Positions 14,827 through 63,527 of a DNA stretch of 64,000 nucleotides are shown here, piece after piece. Position 1 is the first letter of the stretch, and every line of letters starts with the position of its first letter. The DNA comes from Candidatus Pelethosoma merdigallinarum. GTDB taxonomy: Bacteria > Bacillota_I > Bacilli_A > RF39 > UBA660. Below the pieces are notes generated by a model. That model saw only the letters and a list, made by a program, of their open reading frames with translations, was not told the origin of the DNA and searched no databases. The position numbers and the translations under genes are program-made. Location: positions 2,031 through 66,030 of the forward strand of contig DVKJ01000017.1 of the NCBI GenBank assembly GCA_018716065.1, written 5' to 3'.

Positions 14827-17322
14827 TTATGCGTTGCGACCACAACAATTCTTGTACTTTTTTCCACTTCCGCAGGGGCACAATTGATTGCGACCGACCT
14901 TTTTAGCTTTCTTTGTTGGAGTATTCTTTTCTTTACTCTTATCGGTTACAGCTGTACCTTTTGCGACTTGTTTACGTTCCGTATTTTGACGAATTTCTGC
15001 TTTTAATAAGAATAATGTTGTATCACGGTCAATAACATTTAATAATTCATCAAATAGTTCAAATCCTTCTAACGTATAAGCACGCAATGGATTTTCTTGA
15101 GCATATCCACGAAGACCAATTCCTTCACGTAAGTGAGACATCGTGTTGATATGATCCATCCAATGCGTATCAATGACACGTAGAGCAACGGCTTTTTCGA
15201 AATCATTAATAATTTCTACTGGTAATTCTTTAATTTTATGTTCGTATTCTTCAATTACTTTAGATATCAAGAAATCAACGATCTCTTGCTCTTTCATTCC
15301 GTCCATATCATCAATCGTAATTGGTGTATGTACTAAATTACTATTTACCATTTCTAAGATTTCATTACGATCTTTTCCAGAAATTTCTCCATCTTGAACA
15401 TGAGAATGAACTAATTCATCGATGAAATTCTTAATTGTTGATAAAACCGTTTCATGAATAGATTCTTGATCTAGAATTTCATTACGACGTTCATAAATAA
15501 TTTCACGTTGTTGATTAATAACATCATCATATTGTAATAAGTTTTTACGGGTATCAAAGTTATTTCCTTCTACACGTTTTTGGGCAGATTCAATAGAATT
15601 TGATAGCATCTTATTACGAATAGATAGTTCTCCATCAAATCCAACTTTTTGTAATAAAACTTTTGCTTTATCGGTACCAAAACGAACCATTAAATCGTCT
15701 TCAAATGAAACGCAGAATTGAGTTTCTCCTGGATCTCCTTGACGACCAGAACGTCCACGTAACTGATTATCAATACGACGTGATTCGTGTCTTTCTGTAC
15801 CAAGAACAAATAGTCCACCTAATTCTTTGACTTCATCATCAATTTTAATGTCGGTTCCACGACCTGCCATATTCGTTGCGATCGTAACCGCACCTTTTTT
15901 ACCAGCTAAAGCAATGATTTCTGCTTCACGAGCATTATTCTTCGCATTTAATACTTCGTGAGGAATACGTTCCTTTTTAAGCATATTACTTAAAAGTTCA
16001 CTTGCTTCTACCGCAATCGTACCCACTAGTACCGGTTGTCCTTTTTTATGACGCTCTTTAATTTCATTTACAATTGCCTTATATTTTCCAGCTTTTGTCG
16101 CATAGATTAAATCTCCATAATCTTTACGAATAACTGGTTTATTTGTAGGAATAGTAATAACATACATATTGTAAATATCACGGAATTCTTCTTCTTCTGT
16201 TTTTGCGGTTCCGGTCATTCCGGCTAATTTATCATATAAACGGAATAAATTTTGGAACGTAATCGTCGCAAGTGTTTTGGTTTCCTCATTAATTTTAACA
16301 TTTTCTTTCGCTTCTAAAGCTTGGTGTAAACCATCAGAGAATTGACGTCCTTCTTGAAGACGACCCGTAAATTGATCTACGATAATGACACGACCATCAC
16401 GTACAACGTAGTCAAAATCTAATTTCATTCCATAGTTTGCTTTTAAAGCTTGATTAATATGATGAACAAGAGTTGTTTGTTTAATATCGTATAAATTATC
16501 TACATGGAAAGTACGTTCTGCTTCTGCAATTCCTTTTTCATCCAAAGAAACGGAACGTGTTTTCTCATCATAAATATATCCATCATTTTCTTTTAAAGTT
16601 TTGGCAAACTTATCTGCTTGTTGATAAAGATTAGCCGTACTCATATGTCCACCAGAAATGATTAATGGCGTACGTGCTTCATCGATTAACACAGAGTCAA
16701 CCTCATCGATAATAACAAAATTTAATTTACGTTGAACACGATCTTCAGCGCGAACAACCATGTTATCACGTAGATAATCAAATCCAATTTCATTATTCGT
16801 AGAATACATAATATCACAATTATAAGCTTCTCTTTTTTCTTTATGGTTTAAATCGTGATAATTAACACCTACGGTAAGACCTAAGAAACGATAGATTTCT
16901 CCCATCCATTCCGCATCACGTCCAGCTAGGTATTCATTGACTGTAATAATATGAACTCCAAGACCAGATAACGCATTTAAATAAGCAGGCATCGTTTCCG
17001 TTAATGTCTTACCTTCTCCTGTTTTCATTTCGGCAATATTTCCATAGTGAATGGCAAATCCACCTAAAATCTGAACATAGTATGGTTTTTCACCAATCAC
17101 ACGATAAGCTGCCTCACGAGCAACCGCAAAAGCTTCAATTTTAATATCTTCTAACGTTTCACCATTACGAAGACGATCTCTAAACTCTTCTGTTTTATTT
17201 TTCAAGTCTTGATCGCTTAGGTTTGTCATTTCTTCATCTAAGGACATCACTTGATCCGCATATTTTTTAAACTTTTCTAATTCTTTATATTCATGATCAA
17301 ATATTTTCTTTAAAAAGTTCAT
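14827..17322 (-). CDS. secA: Preprotein translocase ATPase SecA
   Basis: Full-length SecA with DEAD-like motor motifs and C-terminal zinc-binding CPCGSGKKYKNCCG. Confidence 0.95.
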   Translation of the reverse strand: MNFLKKIFDHEYKELEKFKKYADQVMSLDEEMTNLSDQDLKNKTEEFRDRLRNGETLEDIKIEAFAVAREAAYRVIGEKPYYVQILGGFAIHYGNIAEMKTGEGKTLTETMPAYLNALSGLGVHIITVNEYLAGRDAEWMGEIYRFLGLTVGVNYHDLNHKEKREAYNCDIMYSTNNEIGFDYLRDNMVVRAEDRVQRKLNFVIIDEVDSVLIDEARTPLIISGGHMSTANLYQQADKFAKTLKENDGYIYDEKTRSVSLDEKGIAEAERTFHVDNLYDIKQTTLVHHINQALKANYGMKLDFDYVVRDGRVIIVDQFTGRLQEGRQFSDGLHQALEAKENVKINEETKTLATITFQNLFRLYDKLAGMTGTAKTEEEEFRDIYNMYVITIPTNKPVIRKDYGDLIYATKAGKYKAIVNEIKERHKKGQPVLVGTIAVEASELLSNMLKKERIPHEVLNAKNNAREAEIIALAGKKGAVTIATNMAGRGTDIKIDDEVKELGGLFVLGTERHESRRIDNQLRGRSGRQGDPGETQFCVSFEDDLMVRFGTDKAKVLLQKVGFDGELSIRNKMLSNSIESAQKRVEGNNFDTRKNLLQYDDVINQQREIIYERRNEILDQESIHETVLSTIKNFIDELVHSHVQDGEISGKDRNEILEMVNSNLVHTPITIDDMDGMKEQEIVDFLISKVIEEYEHKIKELPVEIINDFEKAVALRVIDTHWMDHINTMSHLREGIGLRGYAQENPLRAYTLEGFELFDELLNVIDRDTTLFLLKAEIRQNTERKQVAKGTAVTDKSKEKNTPTKKAKKVGRNQLCPCGSGKKYKNCCGRNA

Positions 17323-49151: not shown

Positions 49152-50044
49152 GTTTTGAATCGCCAAACATGACATAGAACTAAAACTGACTCTAAAAACT
49201 GTACACTATTAGCTAAGTTTTAATACCATCAAAGATGACATAGAACTAAAACTTGTTGTACAAAACATCTCTCATTTATTTCGTTTTAATACCATCAAAG
49301 ATGACATAGAACTAAAACCTGCATTATTTTCTAATTTCTTTTTTTCTTGTTTTAATACCATCAAAGATGACATAGAACTAAAACTCAGTTAATAGTAACG
49401 TTTCAGTTTCATAAGTTTTAATACCATCAAAGATGACATAGAACTAAAACTGCGTTTTAATTTTTTATCTGCTATAATTGGTTTTAATACCATCAAAGAT
49501 GACATAGAACTAAAACTTACAACTAGGTTTTCTTTTAAGCAAATTAGTTTTAATACCATCAAAGATGACATAGAACTAAAACAGCAAGGTATTTTAGAAC
49601 TAATTAGATGTGGTTTTAATACCATCAAAGATGACATAGAACTAAAACTATAAGATAATCTATTAATTAAATCATAGTGTTTTAATACCATCAAAGATGA
49701 CATAGAACTAAAACATCTAACGTTGCAAATGGTATATAGTTAATGTTTTAATACCATCAAAGATGACATAGAACTAAAACTTATTTCTTCTTTATACCCA
49801 AGAATTTTATGTTTTAATACCATCAAAGATGACATAGAACTAAAACATTTCTAACATATTTTTCCACCCTTTCTTTGTTTTAATACCATCAAAGATGACA
49901 TAGAACTAAAACGATAACATTAAGTGTTTTATTTGGAAATGTGTTTTAATACCATCAAAGATGACATAGAACTAAAACATGCTTTACTACAAGCACCTAT
50001 CCCACCGAGTTTTAATACCATCAAAGATGACATAGAACTAAAAC
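49152..50044 (-). CRISPR. Type II-A CRISPR array: 14 repeats (36 bp; the repeat at 49152..49186 is degenerate, 35 bp) and 13 spacers, all 30 bp
   Basis: Plus-strand repeat gttttaataccatcaaagatgacatagaactaaaac at 49217, 49283, 49349, 49415, 49481, 49547, 49613, 49679, 49745, 49811, 49877, 49943, 50009; transcribed strand (minus) reads GTTTTAGTTCTATGTCATCTTTGATGGTATTAAAAC; leader side is next to csn2 (50045..50121); degenerate repeat is at the distal end. Confidence 0.95.
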
Positions 50045-56041: not shown

Positions 56042-56134
56042 GTCTTAATACCATTTAAGATGACATAGAGAGTTAAAATAAAGGTTTTACCCTAAATGCT
56101 CACGTATGTGTTCAACTGCTTAGGCAGTTTTTTT
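56042..56134 (+). ncRNA. tracrRNA: tracrRNA (inferred)
   Basis: Anti-repeat cttaataccatttaagatgacatagagagttaaaataaagg is imperfectly complementary to the minus-strand crRNA repeat; GUUAAAAUAAAGG matches the nexus region of S. pyogenes-type tracrRNAs; terminator hairpin ctgcttaggcag plus T7 at 56116..56134. Confidence 0.65.
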
Positions 56135-56556
56135 GTATTTTTTTACGAAAAAAGGGTTAGTTAAAACCATATAAAGTCTGTACTAGCCCTTTATTATCAT
56201 GGTATCTCACTTACAATTACATTGTAACATGGATATATTTATAAATCAACAAAATACGACATTTTGTGTTCATATTGCAAATCTTATTTTTACTTATTAT
56301 AACTTTTTAAATTAAGAAAATAATAAATTAACCATAATTAAAAACATCGATTGTATCAGATGATCTGAATATCGACGTTTTATTTATATACTGATATTAA
56401 AATGATTATTAACAAATAGCACGTTTTTATATCAAATTTCGATTTTTACTTTCATCGGGCGATGAGGGTCATCTTTTAAAACATAAGACAAAAATCGATT
56501 CCTTGTAGTGTATGTTAGCTCTGTTTGAGGAGGATTGCAAGTTATATTAAAACAAC

Positions 56557-57120
56557 TTAGTCTAACTCTTCTAATTTGACTTCTTTTAAAACTTGAATTG
56601 GATATTTTAACAAATATTCATTTAATACTGGCCTACCATATGGATCCTCTCCATCCTCCCAATATATTTTTGCCATTGCTGCAATATTATAATGCATAGA
56701 ACCACTTATTAAACTCATATTATGTTTTTCAAAATAATCTGATTTCACTTCGTATATCTTGTAAAATGTATCAGATAAATTATTATCATTTATAAATTTT
56801 TTAACGCCTTCACTATCAAACGCATAAAAAGCTTGGTATCGTGATAGTTTTTCTTTGTAATTTAATAATCTTTCATACTCAAATATTATATCCATAACAT
56901 TACTTAATGGCATGACATTATTATTAAACAAATGATTATTTAATAAATATTGAATACCATGATGTGAAAGTCCATCATTATAATATGGCATTACCATATT
57001 TAAAAGTTTAGTGTTATTTTTATTTCCAAGAGAAATATTTTTTTGTAAATCAAGTGTTTGACCCACATTTATAGTTCCACTTCTATCTATGTGATATAAT
57101 TTCATTCTTATCACCTTCAA
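56557..57120 (-). CDS. Hypothetical protein; 3'-terminal partner overlapping the DUF2075 nuclease/helicase gene
   Basis: Overlaps upstream gene by 38 nt (translational coupling); no recognised motif. Confidence 0.4.
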   Translation of the reverse strand: MKVIRMKLYHIDRSGTINVGQTLDLQKNISLGNKNNTKLLNMVMPYYNDGLSHHGIQYLLNNHLFNNNVMPLSNVMDIIFEYERLLNYKEKLSRYQAFYAFDSEGVKKFINDNNLSDTFYKIYEVKSDYFEKHNMSLISGSMHYNIAAMAKIYWEDGEDPYGRPVLNEYLLKYPIQVLKEVKLEELD

Positions 57121-58984
57121 CTTTTCTTTTAAAATAATGTTGTAGCTTTTTGTCTATGCAATATATATAGCAGCCTTTCATTCCTCTTGTCATTAATGTC
57201 CTATATGTATTTTTTATTATTTTGTCTGCTATTTGATTTGCTACTTCTTGACCTTGTTCTTTGGCAATTTTATTGATTCCTTTTAATGATTGATCTGTTT
57301 TTGCTCTTTTTGTATAATCTGTAATAATTTTTCCATTTTCATATCTAATATCCTCACCTATTATTACTCCTACATAGTCAAATTCTAACCCTTGACATGT
57401 GTGGATACATCCCACTTCATTTACAGACATAGGATCAATTGCCCATGTTTGTGAATTTCCTAAATTCCAACTCATTTCAAAATTGTATTCTGGGATTACT
57501 ATATCATGAACATTAGAGTCATTTTTACCACTACTAATCCAATTCCAACAATATCCAGCAACTAATCTTGACTTATTATTTATTTTATTTTTTTCTTCTA
57601 TTAATTTTCTTAACTCATTAGGATTATCTACTACTCTAAAATCATAGTCAAAGTCCATACCATCGAAGTTTGCAGTTTTTCTTATATCTAAAACATTGTC
57701 TAACCAAGCAAGATATCCATCGGATCCATTACATCTAAATTGACTTTCTAACTCCACAATTTTTATTCCTGCATTTAATTCTTTAGCATATTTCTTTATT
57801 TCATCTACTGAGCCAATATCTTTTAGTGTAACTTTTTGATCTTCATCAATAAAGAATATTGAAAAATTGGAAGCATTGATAATCTCTTTAATTTGATTTT
57901 CTCCTAAGTTTTGGAACATTCCAGATTTTGCATTTAATCTATGTGCTTCATCTACAATCAAACAATCAACTTCATTGCTCTCGGCTTCTGTGAACTGTCC
58001 TGATCCTTGAAATAAATTATTAATATATGTCATTTTAAATGAGCCTTTTAATTTATCTCTAAAGACTGCCCTTGGTGCTGCATTCTTAGTTACATAGAAA
58101 CAAGTCATATTTCTGTTAGTAAGTTCAACCAATAAATTAATTGCTAAAACTGATTTTCCGGTACCTGGTCCTCCTTGTACGACCAATACATTTTTATCAT
58201 TTGCTGATAAAGTATCTATTGCCATTCTAATAGCATCTTCATAGATTACTTTCTGCTCATCAATCATGTTAAACTCTTTATTGCCTTGTAACATTTTAGT
58301 AAGTGAGTCTTGTAGTCTTTTGGATGGCCTGATTTTTCCATTTTCAATTTTATATAAAGTTTCCCTATCATCACCCTCAAGAATATATCTTTTTATAAAA
58401 CTTCTTAGTTTCATAAAATCATTAGACCCAAACATTGGAGCTTCTTTTATGTATTCTTGATATTGACTACTGCAAATTGGATCATCTTCATTTAATACAT
58501 AGTTATGTAGAAAAGCACAAGGGTGTAAACCTATATCTTCTAGCTGCACTGTTTCATTAAAGTCTTTAATTAAATTAGCATAGCTCATAGCTTGATATGA
58601 CGGATGTGTAACTTCTCTTATTGCATGCCCAGTAAAAGTAGAAACAATTCCGTCTTTTCCTTCTACTGCGTCACATTTTTCCCATTGCTTTAGTTCTATA
58701 ATAATAACAGAATCTTTTTTATTTCTATCTCTACCAGATAGAATAAAGTCTATTCTTTTAGAAGTCGTTGGAATATTAAATTCAATAGCTACTCCTGCAT
58801 TGTCTGGTATTTCATTGTCATCTAATACACCTCGCATATATTGCATAGAATTTTTCCACGAGTTTAATTGAGAATCACTTGTTCTTCCAAAATATTTTTG
58901 ATATTTTTCATAAATTTTATTTACAATGAGATTTAAGTTGACATCATTAATAAAACCTGATTTTATTCCTTCATACACTAACAT
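57083..58984 (-). CDS. DUF2075/Schlafen-type SF1 helicase-like ATPase with N-terminal PD-(D/E)xK-like nuclease domain (candidate defence nuclease-helicase)
   Basis: N-terminal RIDFIL...IIIELKQW (D...ExK); Walker A VVQGGPGTGKS; Walker B CLIVDEAHRL; C-terminal TLMTRGMKGCYIY typical of DUF2075 proteins. Confidence 0.6.
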   Translation of the reverse strand: MLVYEGIKSGFINDVNLNLIVNKIYEKYQKYFGRTSDSQLNSWKNSMQYMRGVLDDNEIPDNAGVAIEFNIPTTSKRIDFILSGRDRNKKDSVIIIELKQWEKCDAVEGKDGIVSTFTGHAIREVTHPSYQAMSYANLIKDFNETVQLEDIGLHPCAFLHNYVLNEDDPICSSQYQEYIKEAPMFGSNDFMKLRSFIKRYILEGDDRETLYKIENGKIRPSKRLQDSLTKMLQGNKEFNMIDEQKVIYEDAIRMAIDTLSANDKNVLVVQGGPGTGKSVLAINLLVELTNRNMTCFYVTKNAAPRAVFRDKLKGSFKMTYINNLFQGSGQFTEAESNEVDCLIVDEAHRLNAKSGMFQNLGENQIKEIINASNFSIFFIDEDQKVTLKDIGSVDEIKKYAKELNAGIKIVELESQFRCNGSDGYLAWLDNVLDIRKTANFDGMDFDYDFRVVDNPNELRKLIEEKNKINNKSRLVAGYCWNWISSGKNDSNVHDIVIPEYNFEMSWNLGNSQTWAIDPMSVNEVGCIHTCQGLEFDYVGVIIGEDIRYENGKIITDYTKRAKTDQSLKGINKIAKEQGQEVANQIADKIIKNTYRTLMTRGMKGCYIYCIDKKLQHYFKRKVEGDKNEIISHR

Positions 58985-59012
58985 TTTGCATACTCCTTAC
59001 TATATTAAAAAC

Positions 59013-59330
59013 TTATTTTAACTTTGTATATTTTGTACTTACTCCTTTAGCTTTTTCTATTGGATATTTTTTTGCTGTAATTTTCATTTTATCCAAAACA
59101 ATTTTCTCAGGATCTACTCCTAATTTATCTGCCAGCAATAATGCATAGTTAATTACATCTGCAAGTTCTGATTTTACTTCTTCAATATCATAATTAGAAT
59201 TCCATTGAAAACATTCCAATAATTCTCCTGCTTCTATTGATATTGATTTTGCCAAATTCTCAGGACTATGAAATTGATCCCAGTCACGTTCTTCATTAAA
59301 CTCTTTAATTTTTTTTGTTAACTCTTGCAT
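59013..59330 (-). CDS. MazG-like nucleoside triphosphate pyrophosphohydrolase (all-alpha NTP-PPase)
   Basis: ~105 aa with SIEAGELLECFQW (EAGEL-type metal-binding helix) and ELADVINYALLLA. Confidence 0.6.
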   Translation of the reverse strand: MQELTKKIKEFNEERDWDQFHSPENLAKSISIEAGELLECFQWNSNYDIEEVKSELADVINYALLLADKLGVDPEKIVLDKMKITAKKYPIEKAKGVSTKYTKLK

Positions 59331-59340
59331 AGTAACCCTC

Positions 59341-60186
59341 CTAAAATAACTCTTTTACAATCAAATCTTCTGAGTGTAGATTATTATTTTTACCCAATAA
59401 TAAATTCTCATAAAATTTAATTAAATAACTTTTGTCTTCTTTGATATTTAAATAATTATTAAAATAATTACTTCTTACTAAAGCATTTCTAAAATACACT
59501 GATTTATCCTTAAATAACGAATTATCTACGTTATACCCTAAACTAATTAAATATTTTTCTATAAATACTGCTGTTGTTCTAGTATTACCTTCTCTAAAAG
59601 GATGTACTTGCCATATACTGGAAGAAAAGTTAGTAATATTTTTTATAACTTCTACAACAGTCATATCTTTATAGCTTTTATCTTTTTCTAAGCTAATATC
59701 ATATTCTAGTGACTCGGTTAATGTTTTAGAGTCTCCATATGCAACTGTATCATTATTTAATATTTTTTCATGTTTCGAAAAATCTATTTTTCTAAACTCT
59801 CCTGCAAATTCATAAACATCTTGAAATAAATATTTATGAATATATTTTAGATAATTTACTGATAATTCAAAATTATCTTGATCTAATAATTCAACTATTC
59901 TCATAGATACAAAGTCACATTCTAATTCCTTATGATTAATATCTTTTTGTTTTTCTTTTGTAGTGTAATATTCTCTTAAACTTTGCTCTACTTCTTTAAT
60001 TGTTAATTCACCTAAAATATTTTTTTCACTCATCTGTTCAAGATATTTAGATGGTTTTAAGTTATCTACCTGTTGTAATCCTATCGCCATATCCCATTGT
60101 AACTGTTTTATATAACCTTTAGGTTTTTGTTCTTCTTGATATGGATTCATACTAGAATCTAAATCTTTTTCACTCATGAAAATCAC
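59341..60186 (-). CDS. Fic/Doc-family protein (putative AMPylase/phosphotransferase) with variant active-site motif
   Basis: HPFREGNTRTTAVF corresponds to Fic motif HPFx[DE]GNGRxxR with Gly-to-Thr substitution; 10-nt gap to downstream MazG gene. Confidence 0.7.
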   Translation of the reverse strand: MIFMSEKDLDSSMNPYQEEQKPKGYIKQLQWDMAIGLQQVDNLKPSKYLEQMSEKNILGELTIKEVEQSLREYYTTKEKQKDINHKELECDFVSMRIVELLDQDNFELSVNYLKYIHKYLFQDVYEFAGEFRKIDFSKHEKILNNDTVAYGDSKTLTESLEYDISLEKDKSYKDMTVVEVIKNITNFSSSIWQVHPFREGNTRTTAVFIEKYLISLGYNVDNSLFKDKSVYFRNALVRSNYFNNYLNIKEDKSYLIKFYENLLLGKNNNLHSEDLIVKELF

Positions 60187-60425
60187 CTACATATATTCAT
60201 TAACATTATATCATATCTATAAACATATCTCATCCTATTAAACTTTATCTACAAAAATAATTTCTATGATAAACTCGAATTCAACAATAAAAGTATAAAA
60301 TAATTCTTTTCAAATACAATACACTAACAAAAATATATGTTTTTTACTTATAGAGAACGAAAGTTAAAACAAATCAAAAATGTGTAAATTTCCATTACAC
60401 ACTTTTACCTATTCTCTTACAAATA

Positions 60426-63129: not shown

Positions 63130-63400
63130 TGTCAATTTAATCGCATTCTAATCATTATGATTAATATCTTTTTGTTGTTCTTTTGTGGAGTAATATTTTC
63201 TAAAACTTTATTCTACTTCTTTGATTAGTAATTCACCCAAAATATTTTTTACTAATCTGTTCAAGATATTTAGATGGCCTTAAATTTTCTACCTGTTGTA
63301 ACCCAATAGCCATATCTCATTGTAACTGTTTTATATAACCTTTAGTTTTTTGTTCTTCTTGATATGGATTCATAATAGAATCCATATCTTTTTCACTCAT
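63130..63400 (-). pseudogene. Degraded duplicate of the 5' portion of the Fic gene (59341..60186)
   Basis: 63153..63400 aligns with 59932..60177 at ~85% identity with indels that break the frame (e.g. ttatgattaatatctttttgtt...gatatggattcataatagaatccatatctttttcactcat). Confidence 0.6.
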
Positions 63401-63527
63401 ATAACTTTACCTAACATTTCTATATCGTTGAATCATATTATCCATATTTTCTATAATTATTATTTTTATTGCTTTATCTTTCGCTCAAGTCTTTTTTATT
63501 TATAAATGATGGTAATTCAATATTATC

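Follow-up and report, generated by a model that had tools for sequence, protein, structure and literature searches.

In a 64,000-nucleotide stretch of a metagenome-assembled genome of Candidatus Pelethosoma merdigallinarum (contig DVKJ01000017.1, positions 2,031 to 66,030; hereafter the window), four genes are packed on the minus strand next to a type II-A CRISPR-Cas locus. They encode, in the order of transcription, a Fic-domain protein, a MazG-like nucleoside triphosphate (NTP) pyrophosphatase, a DUF2075 nuclease-helicase and a small protein of 182 aa (NCBI proteins HIT11549-HIT11552; Table 1). An initial annotation of the sequence described the cluster as a probable operon within a defence island and took the overlap of its last two genes as a sign of translational coupling. 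This raises the question of whether the four genes form one system. We think it rather probable that the cluster is instead a defence-island stretch of three independent, co-directional modules: a MazG-helicase core and two exchangeable add-ons, the Fic gene and a gene for an ADP-ribosyltransferase (ART)-fold protein.

Linkage of the MazG-like gene and the DUF2075 helicase gene

The pairing of the second and third genes recurs far beyond the window. Of 84 loci whose helicases are 61-96% identical to that of the window, 71 have the MazG-like gene upstream of the helicase gene and co-oriented with it, and so do at least 64 of the 67 loci having at least 1 kb of upstream DNA. The same order is found in more distant records. 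On a plasmid of the haloarchaeon Halalkalicoccus jeotgali (helicase 53% identical), the annotated MazG coding sequence ends 5 nt upstream of the helicase gene; in a Microcystis phage record (helicase 55%, MazG 47%) the distance is 14 nt, and a Priestia aryabhattai plasmid (helicase 41%) also has MazG upstream. In a Halomonas replicon (helicase 52%, MazG 47%), MazG is located downstream, so that the order is swapped and the linkage retained. In plasmid pBT62A of B. thuringiensis (helicase about 25%), an NTP pyrophosphatase of a different subfamily is followed by an HNH gene and then by the helicase gene. Moreover, the identities of the MazG-like proteins and of the helicases correlate (Spearman 0.46, p 5e-5). 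MazG and DUF2075 genes are thus co-localised across distinct lineages, and these comparisons indicate that they are a deeply conserved unit of bacteria and archaea, which the initial annotation had overlooked. The pairing is absent from PADLOC, and no paper in the searchable literature joins DUF2075 with MazG or a pyrophosphohydrolase.

Profile searches confirmed the MazG-like assignment of the 105-aa protein, which matches PF12643 with 72 bits for a cut-off of 27. Its closest solved relatives are the archaeal pyrophosphatase 4qgp and dCTP pyrophosphatase 1/RS21-C6 (E about 1e-16). With the all-alpha MazG house-cleaning enzymes DCTPP1/RS21-C6, the match extends across all 105 aa, and the metal-binding motifs typical of these pyrophosphatases, ExxE (EAGE) and ExxD (ELAD), are intact. 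Unlike them, however, the protein of the window is prokaryotic and of minimal size, and its gene is linked to that of a nuclease-helicase in defence islands. PADLOC has no model for it.

The 633-aa helicase was likewise correctly recognised as a DUF2075 superfamily 1 (SF1) enzyme. PF09848 (SLFN-g3/DUF2075) covers residues 264-611, and the Walker A motif GGPGTGKS, the DEAH motif and the C-terminal signature TLMTRGMKGCYIY are all present. Upstream of this core, the N-terminal domain holds residues that never vary among 25 sequences, even at 20-29% identity: E68, R77, D79, E97-L-K99, W101, H127-P128 and Q131xxxY135. As read from the alignment, this is the PD-(D/E)xK plus QxxxY pattern, and the architecture proposed earlier, a PD-(D/E)xK-like N-terminus followed by DUF2075 as in Nhi-type proteins, was upheld. 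The domain was detected in 1818 representative proteins (E ≤ 1e-3); in the best 150 of these it stands at or near the N-terminus, and the full-length proteins measure about 620-650 or about 790 aa. Searches of the PDB gave no match, either with a profile of the N-terminal domain or with the helicase sequence.

The helicase family is large and patchily distributed. Its homologues number more than 8000, and hundreds of the cluster representatives are 86-98% identical. Its scattered plasmid occurrences span Archaea and four bacterial phyla; full-length relatives with 41-62% identity are found on plasmids of Archaea, Bacteroidota, Gammaproteobacteria and Bacillota. A helicase 88% identical to that of the window is recorded for a Methanosphaera sp., and Methanosphaera plasmid pNP174 carries one at 62%. 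Judging from these identities, recent gut transfer between bacteria and archaea may account for the Methanosphaera helicases, or, for the 88% record, a binning error. On a Hymenobacter plasmid, two DUF2075 nuclease-helicase paralogues stand in tandem, with identities of 50% and 32% to the protein of the window (L116 6001-7857 and 8098-9987; comparison loci are numbered with the prefix L). They adjoin a restriction-modification (R-M) system and have no MazG.

DUF2075 helicases are prokaryotic relatives of the Schlafen helicase domain and, to our knowledge, only their single-gene versions, Nhi and Nhi-like, have so far been tied to immunity. Nhi of S. epidermidis (SERP2475) and the Nhi-like proteins (Millman et al., 2022) are single-gene nuclease-helicase defences. 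They share with the helicase of the window an N-terminal PD-(D/E)xK-type module followed by an SF1 core overlapping DUF2075/PF09848, as well as a location in defence islands. However, the PADLOC Nhi model gives a partial, weak match (57 bits, E 3e-16, residues 240-420 against profile positions 183-332 of 470). In addition, the family of the window is almost always accompanied by a MazG-like pyrophosphatase, a partner not described for Nhi, and its operon embeds cargo genes, unlike Nhi. The PADLOC matches of the helicase are all partial (AbiO, PDC-S41 and Nhi, E 1e-16 to 1e-18); AbiO and PDC-S41 have the P-loop/DUF2075 region in common with it (E about 1e-18), but their matches cover part of the protein, which is a full-length member of neither. 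What is new here is that a nuclease-helicase of the Nhi type has a pyrophosphatase as its conserved partner and cargo slots built into the operon.

Exchangeable genes around the pair

In 40 of the 71 MazG-helicase pairs, an ORF (open reading frame) is inserted between the two genes, co-oriented and tightly packed. The inserts that can be annotated encode an AbiU2-type HEPN protein, an Mrr type IV restriction endonuclease, DRT UG13b, a PtuA-like ATPase and PDC-S61. DUF2075 genes have been described next to modification-dependent nucleases (PMC6765204), which is consistent with such inserts. Neither Pfam nor PADLOC recognises several other inserts, of 196, 200, 264 and 298 aa (L029 5392-5982, L035 5587-6189, L058 3389-4183 and L072 5413-6309). 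Since the slot is otherwise filled with known defence genes, they are candidates for new ones. The region 3' of the helicase gene is variable too. There, a C5 methylase, PDC-S73 (Mrr-nSTAND3), PDC-M30A with a radical SAM protein, Csm6 with CRISPR arrays, serine recombinases, prophage integrases or cas9 are encountered. Within the 90%-identity cluster of the helicase, tail lengths of 633, 629, 625 and 623 aa track different downstream cargo. In three loci (L029-L031), 12 nt separate the helicase stop from the end of a convergent gene for a prophage tyrosine integrase (e.g., L029 7887-7899); because this gene abuts the stop, the helicase 3' end seems to serve as a phage attachment site.

The defence-island setting proposed initially is borne out by these loci. 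Flanking genes encode a C5 methyltransferase, AbiEi, PDC-S73, PDC-M30A, Type ISP, Csm6 or Cas9, and R-M, DRT, Septu-like, AbiE, PDC-candidate, Csm6 and CRISPR genes either surround the pair or replace it. Nucleotide-sanitation genes are neighbours in some loci (NT5C, NUDIX, a YunG-uracil-DNA glycosylase (UDG) fusion and adenosine deaminase). Defence cargo is also embedded inside type I R-M loci, and hotspots in P2/P4-like elements are flanked by conserved genes. The MazG-helicase loci resemble such hotspots in having conserved flanks and packed, co-oriented, interchangeable cargo of unrelated defence types. Here, however, a MazG gene and a DUF2075 helicase gene take the flanking positions, an arrangement that was not found in the searchable literature.

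The Fic gene behaves as one of the exchangeable elements. Among the 85 helicase loci initially sampled (helicases 61-96% identical), 13 (about 15%) carry Fic, always upstream of MazG. Conversely, Fic proteins 92-94% identical to that of the window occupy the same chromosomal site, with CotJB/Mn-catalase upstream, and are followed by other systems (L121-123, L127-128): either a D12 methyltransferase, an HNH protein and an OLD-like ATPase, or a Type ISP restriction enzyme. Because so few helicase loci have Fic and a Fic of 92-94% identity precedes other systems elsewhere, the comparison of loci indicates that Fic is an independent module, and its obligate membership in the MazG-helicase pair can be ruled out. 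It also follows that the MazG-helicase pair is itself accessory, not core, at the fixed CotJB/Fic site, since other systems replace it there in close relatives and since it occurs patchily on plasmids.

At the protein level, membership of the Fic family stands, but the initial assignment to the AMPylase type meets a difficulty: the active-site motif reads HPFREGNTRTTA and departs from the canonical HxFx(D/E)GNGRxxR by a G-to-T and a last R-to-A change. The nearest solved relatives are the Bep and VbhT Fic domains; the match to SoFic is weak (8e-5), and all NCBIfam equivalog matches are far under their cut-offs. In PADLOC, the full-length protein strongly matches the single-gene Fic candidate PDC-S72 (E 5.8e-84; its residues 14-279 align with profile positions 7-271 of 377), but the last about 100 positions of that profile are absent from it. 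No paper on PDC-S72 was found in the searchable literature. In 6-7 related loci, a 200-aa AbiEi-type gene (PADLOC AbiEi, E 5e-56) stands directly upstream of Fic (L036, L054, L058, L059, L061 and L087; e.g., L058 1598-2200); the window has no AbiEi. AbiEi is paired there with Fic instead of the usual AbiEii nucleotidyltransferase, and AbiEi-Fic may be a toxin-antitoxin-like module.

The fourth gene was initially given as an ORF of 187 aa. Its start is ATG 57105, giving 182 aa, because the N-terminal MKLYHIDR is invariant in 34 of 34 aligned homologues, the NCBI annotation also has 182 aa and a ribosome-binding site (RBS), GAAGGTGA, lies ahead of this codon. The predicted structure (pLDDT 95.8) has an ART-like fold: its structural relatives include, as a consistent series, the ART-fold enzymes Arr, DarT, OspC3, MbcT, RES toxins, LT and pertussis toxin. 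Pfam places DUF2441 in its ART clan (PMC7955679). For the protein and its homologues, PF10386 is listed in precomputed annotation; in our hmmscan, no Pfam model matched the protein, and the current PF10386 model gave no match at E ≤ 10. Identity to 2AUA (BC2332, DUF2441) is only about 19%, and a sequence search against the PDB gave no match. The protein also resembles phrog_5663 and uncharacterised phage proteins in BFVD (TM-score 0.72-0.80); tblastn against phage genomes found no match. The family is small (75 homologues). In the aligned homologues, H5, R8, S47, H49, E76, E78, R79, E119 and E126 are invariant and are candidates for an NAD-binding/catalytic triad (H-Y-E or R-S-E). The protein may be Arr-like or DarT-like in chemistry. 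No antitoxin gene is adjacent.

The surroundings of this gene are heterogeneous. Neither helicase nor MazG is found near its homologues in any of 28 genome loci (30-83% identity), and the gene itself is found in none of the 85 initially sampled helicase loci. The nearest outgroup homologues (81-83% identity) follow an HsdR-like gene of 1024 aa, and those at 71% have FIST/aldehyde dehydrogenase genes as neighbours or border a serine-recombinase/Bro-N element. For a 47% homologue, synteny with ThyX, AI-2E transporter and F420-ligase-like genes is stable, and the homologue overlaps the transporter gene by 4 nt. From these contexts, the 182-aa gene appears to be stand-alone cargo. The Fic and ART-fold proteins most likely each act alone. 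For some distant homologues, the preceding gene encodes a small canonical Fic/Doc protein (184 aa, HPFLDGNGRTMR; L005, L013 and L017, e.g., L017 9395-9949); ART-Fic adjacency thus recurs independently of the Fic of the window. Other distant homologues are preceded by a DUF1653 protein of about 86 aa (L021-L024).

How, then, did the fourth gene come to overlap the helicase gene? Recomputing the layout reproduced the four minus-strand ORFs and their spacing as initially given: 10 nt from the Fic stop to the MazG ATG, 28 nt from the MazG stop to the helicase ATG, and an overlap of 38 nt between the helicase gene and the 187-aa ORF, or 23 nt counted from the corrected start. The tight, operon-like packing is thus confirmed. 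The origin of the overlap is visible in the DNA. Homology to the closest helicase locus (L032, Fic-MazG-helicase, 93.6% identity) stops at 57148, 65 nt before the helicase stop, and homology to the partner cassette of L001 (80% identity) begins at 57157 and includes the partner's leader of about 50 nt with its RBS. This leader is intergenic in L001 and is read as the C-terminal tail of the helicase in the window. The overlap therefore results from the helicase ORF running on into a conserved 5' leader that belongs to the partner, and, as far as the alignments tell, it is a recombination scar and not an evolved coupling device. Taken with the similar overlap of the 47% homologue with its transporter gene, the junction rules out the 23 nt as a sign of coupling.

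A four-component defence system of Fic, MazG, helicase and 182-aa protein, with the last gene translationally coupled, would account for the tight packing and for the lack of any predicted minus-strand terminator between the genes. It would also fit the situation within the source species, where a partner protein that is identical (100%) occurs in at least seven flank contexts, always as Fic-MazG-helicase-partner. Outside the loci with that identical partner protein, the block is not conserved. Because of the identity the signal is shallow, and genes without intergenic space to recombine in are expected to be kept together; the block was inherited or moved as one piece within the species. Thus, the neighbourhood of the partner is conserved inside the source species only and dissolves across the lineages sampled, where no locus joins all four genes. 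The mutual absence of partner and helicase from the sampled loci, the other downstream cargo carried by helicases of the same 90%-identity cluster, the junction with the partner's own leader and the like overlap with an unrelated upstream transporter gene all speak against one system; about 85% of MazG-helicase loci lack Fic, and other systems follow Fic elsewhere. Such a system is accordingly hard to credit, and the result guards the annotation of the window from a false "four-gene system" call.

Competing readings of the MazG-helicase pair

The reading in three modules builds on observed domains, intact motifs, cross-phylum linkage, island setting and accessory behaviour, from which the activities, substrates and anti-phage role are inferred. 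By analogy with Nhi, it can be proposed that the nuclease-helicase would load on and degrade invading or replicating phage DNA. The pyrophosphatase would hydrolyse dCTP-type or base-modified deoxynucleoside triphosphates (dNTPs), and their removal could either starve phage replication or block the building of modified, nuclease-resistant DNA. The MazG-helicase interval and the helicase 3' end would be slots exchanging other defence genes by recombination. In the window, the occupants would be the PDC-S72-type Fic gene upstream and, in the 3' slot, the DUF2441-like ART-fold gene, joined by the recombination junction.

Several observations weigh against this reading. Pfam NERD matches of the N-terminal domain are weak and limited to 3 of the 25 members in per-member scans, and an AlphaFold2 (AF2) model of the domain, built from a shallow 7-sequence alignment, reached a pLDDT of 44. 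MazG is not paired with the helicase in the Methanosphaera, Hymenobacter and Streptomyces records or in L038. There is also a small chance, given the block seen in at least seven contexts, that Fic or the ART-fold protein is functionally linked to the pair in this lineage. Finally, the very high conservation, including in gut Bacilli, with hundreds of helicase cluster representatives at 86-98%, the prophage integrase abutting the helicase stop (L029-31) and the nucleotide-sanitation neighbours (NT5C, NUDIX, YunG-UDG and adenosine deaminase) are what one would expect if MazG and helicase were a housekeeping nucleotide-sanitation/DNA-repair operon, serving a defence hotspot as an anchor with recombination and integration sites. 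The kinship of MazG with the house-cleaning enzymes DCTPP1 and RS21-C6 points the same way. This housekeeping role is unlikely, although it deserves to be kept in mind: in close relatives other defence systems replace the pair at the same chromosomal site, the pair has a patchy occurrence that takes in plasmids, a phage record and two domains of life, its domain plan is that of validated defence proteins, and defence genes are inserted inside the operon.

Alternatively, the helicase alone might be a Nhi-like single-gene defence with MazG as an unrelated hitch-hiker, as Nhi and Nhi-like proteins work as single genes, some DUF2075 relatives lack MazG and defence cargo often separates the two genes. 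We give this little credence, because the linkage persists from 96% to 41% helicase identity and across phyla, and survives both the change of order in Halomonas and the swap of pyrophosphatase subfamily in B. thuringiensis. A more ambitious proposal, which we regard as quite improbable, is that the MazG-(X)-DUF2075 operon is a modular defence platform, in which the conserved pyrophosphatase and nuclease-helicase would supply a common sensing or DNA-processing function. The genes that occupy the positions between and behind them (HEPN, Mrr, HNH, DRT, PtuA-like and PDC candidates, and in the window those for Fic and the ART-fold protein) would depend on this function or be licensed by it; if true, it would be a new organising principle of defence operons in bacteria and archaea. 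Under the favoured reading of a two-gene core with independent add-ons, the near-obligate linkage of a DCTPP1-like pyrophosphatase to one DUF2075 branch, from Bacilli to haloarchaea, hints at a nucleotide-pool step in immunity. The operon is also a finding aid: as its slots hold known defence genes, new ones may well be sought among the unannotated occupants, such as the inserts of 196, 200, 264 and 298 aa or the DUF2441-like ART-fold gene. MazG plus helicase make a simple two-gene construct for testing.

Layout of the locus and neighbouring features

The coordinates are collected in Table 1. Homologues with strong E-values are numerous for each of the four genes, so that chance ORFs are excluded. 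Comparison with all homologues and with the NCBI annotation makes ATG 60177 most likely the start of Fic, giving 278 aa. The AT-rich, promoter-like gap noted initially upstream of Fic measures 239 nt and does contain a -35/-10 match with an extended TG (60233-60205), although such matches are not enriched relative to shuffled sequences. No terminator-like site is predicted on the minus strand between the genes. All four are probably carried on a single transcript from a promoter 5' of Fic.

Table 1. Positions, in window coordinates, of the genes and other elements discussed in the text.
Feature	Position	Strand	Basis or remark
CRISPR array, 36-nt repeats	49217-50044		
Probable tracrRNA for cas9	56043-56134	+	anti-repeat complementary to 36-nt CRISPR repeat
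120-bp conserved sequence, far end of variable cargo slot	56430-56548		84% identical to L032 14768-14885
Fourth ORF, 187 aa	56557-57120	minus	ORF list; corrected gene 56557-57105, 182 aa
DUF2441-like ART-fold protein, 182 aa, variable slot at helicase 3' end	56557-57105	minus	
DUF2075 (SLFN-g3) SF1 helicase, 633 aa, nuclease-like N-terminus	57083-58984	minus	ORF list; PF09848, E 3e-108
Recombination junction inside helicase 3' end	57148-57157		DNA homology break, L032 vs L001
N-terminal domain of helicase, residues 1-245, putative PD-(D/E)xK nuclease, RecB/NERD type	58250-58984	minus	invariant motifs
MazG-like all-alpha NTP pyrophosphatase, 105 aa, DCTPP1-like	59013-59330	minus	ORF list; PF12643, E 4e-20
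Fic ORF	59341-60186	minus	ORF list; corrected gene 59341-60177
Fic-domain protein, 278 aa, PADLOC single-gene candidate PDC-S72	59341-60177	minus	PF02661, E 4e-12
Promoter-like site 5' of Fic	60205-60233	minus	ATGAGA, 17 nt, TATAAT, extended TG; consensus match alone
YunG domain + family-4 UDG fusion, 301 aa	60426-61331	minus	upstream of Fic
Decayed duplicate of Fic 5' end	63157-63400	minus	similar DNA spans 63139-63477

The type II-A identity of the adjacent CRISPR-Cas locus was upheld: Pfam matches identify cas9, cas1, cas2 and csn2, and an array of 36-nt repeats and a trans-activating CRISPR RNA (tracrRNA)-like anti-repeat are present. The tracrRNA candidate has a full-length, sub-threshold match to the Rfam tracrRNA (29 bits, E 0.018), ends in a hairpin followed by a T-run (56114-56129) and is transcribed opposite to cas9. 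At gathering thresholds Rfam gave no match within the window, and a tRNA scan of the window found none. The 120-bp sequence was also considered as the tracrRNA and was rejected, as it is present in L032, where no cas9 lies within about 3 kb downstream; the anti-repeat is found at the candidate site instead.

This 120-bp sequence is shared with L032/L033 (14768-14885) and is absent from all other fetched loci. In both places the variable cargo behind the helicase ends at this sequence; in L032, that cargo consists of four different genes (PDC-M30A-like, radical SAM, DUF6119 and one of 429 aa). A terminator-like hairpin with a T-run on the + strand lies within it (56448-56469).

The gene for the YunG-UDG fusion, located upstream of Fic in the window, is found in L032 at the distal island end (14952-15869); these opposite positions show that the island has been rearranged. 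Further upstream, the decayed copy of Fic retains about 81 codons that are 80-84% identical to the intact N-terminus, interrupted by two in-frame stops and a frameshift. Between the intact and decayed copies lie orf260 and the YunG-UDG gene, and the sequence of the decayed copy suggests an older island boundary or a duplication.

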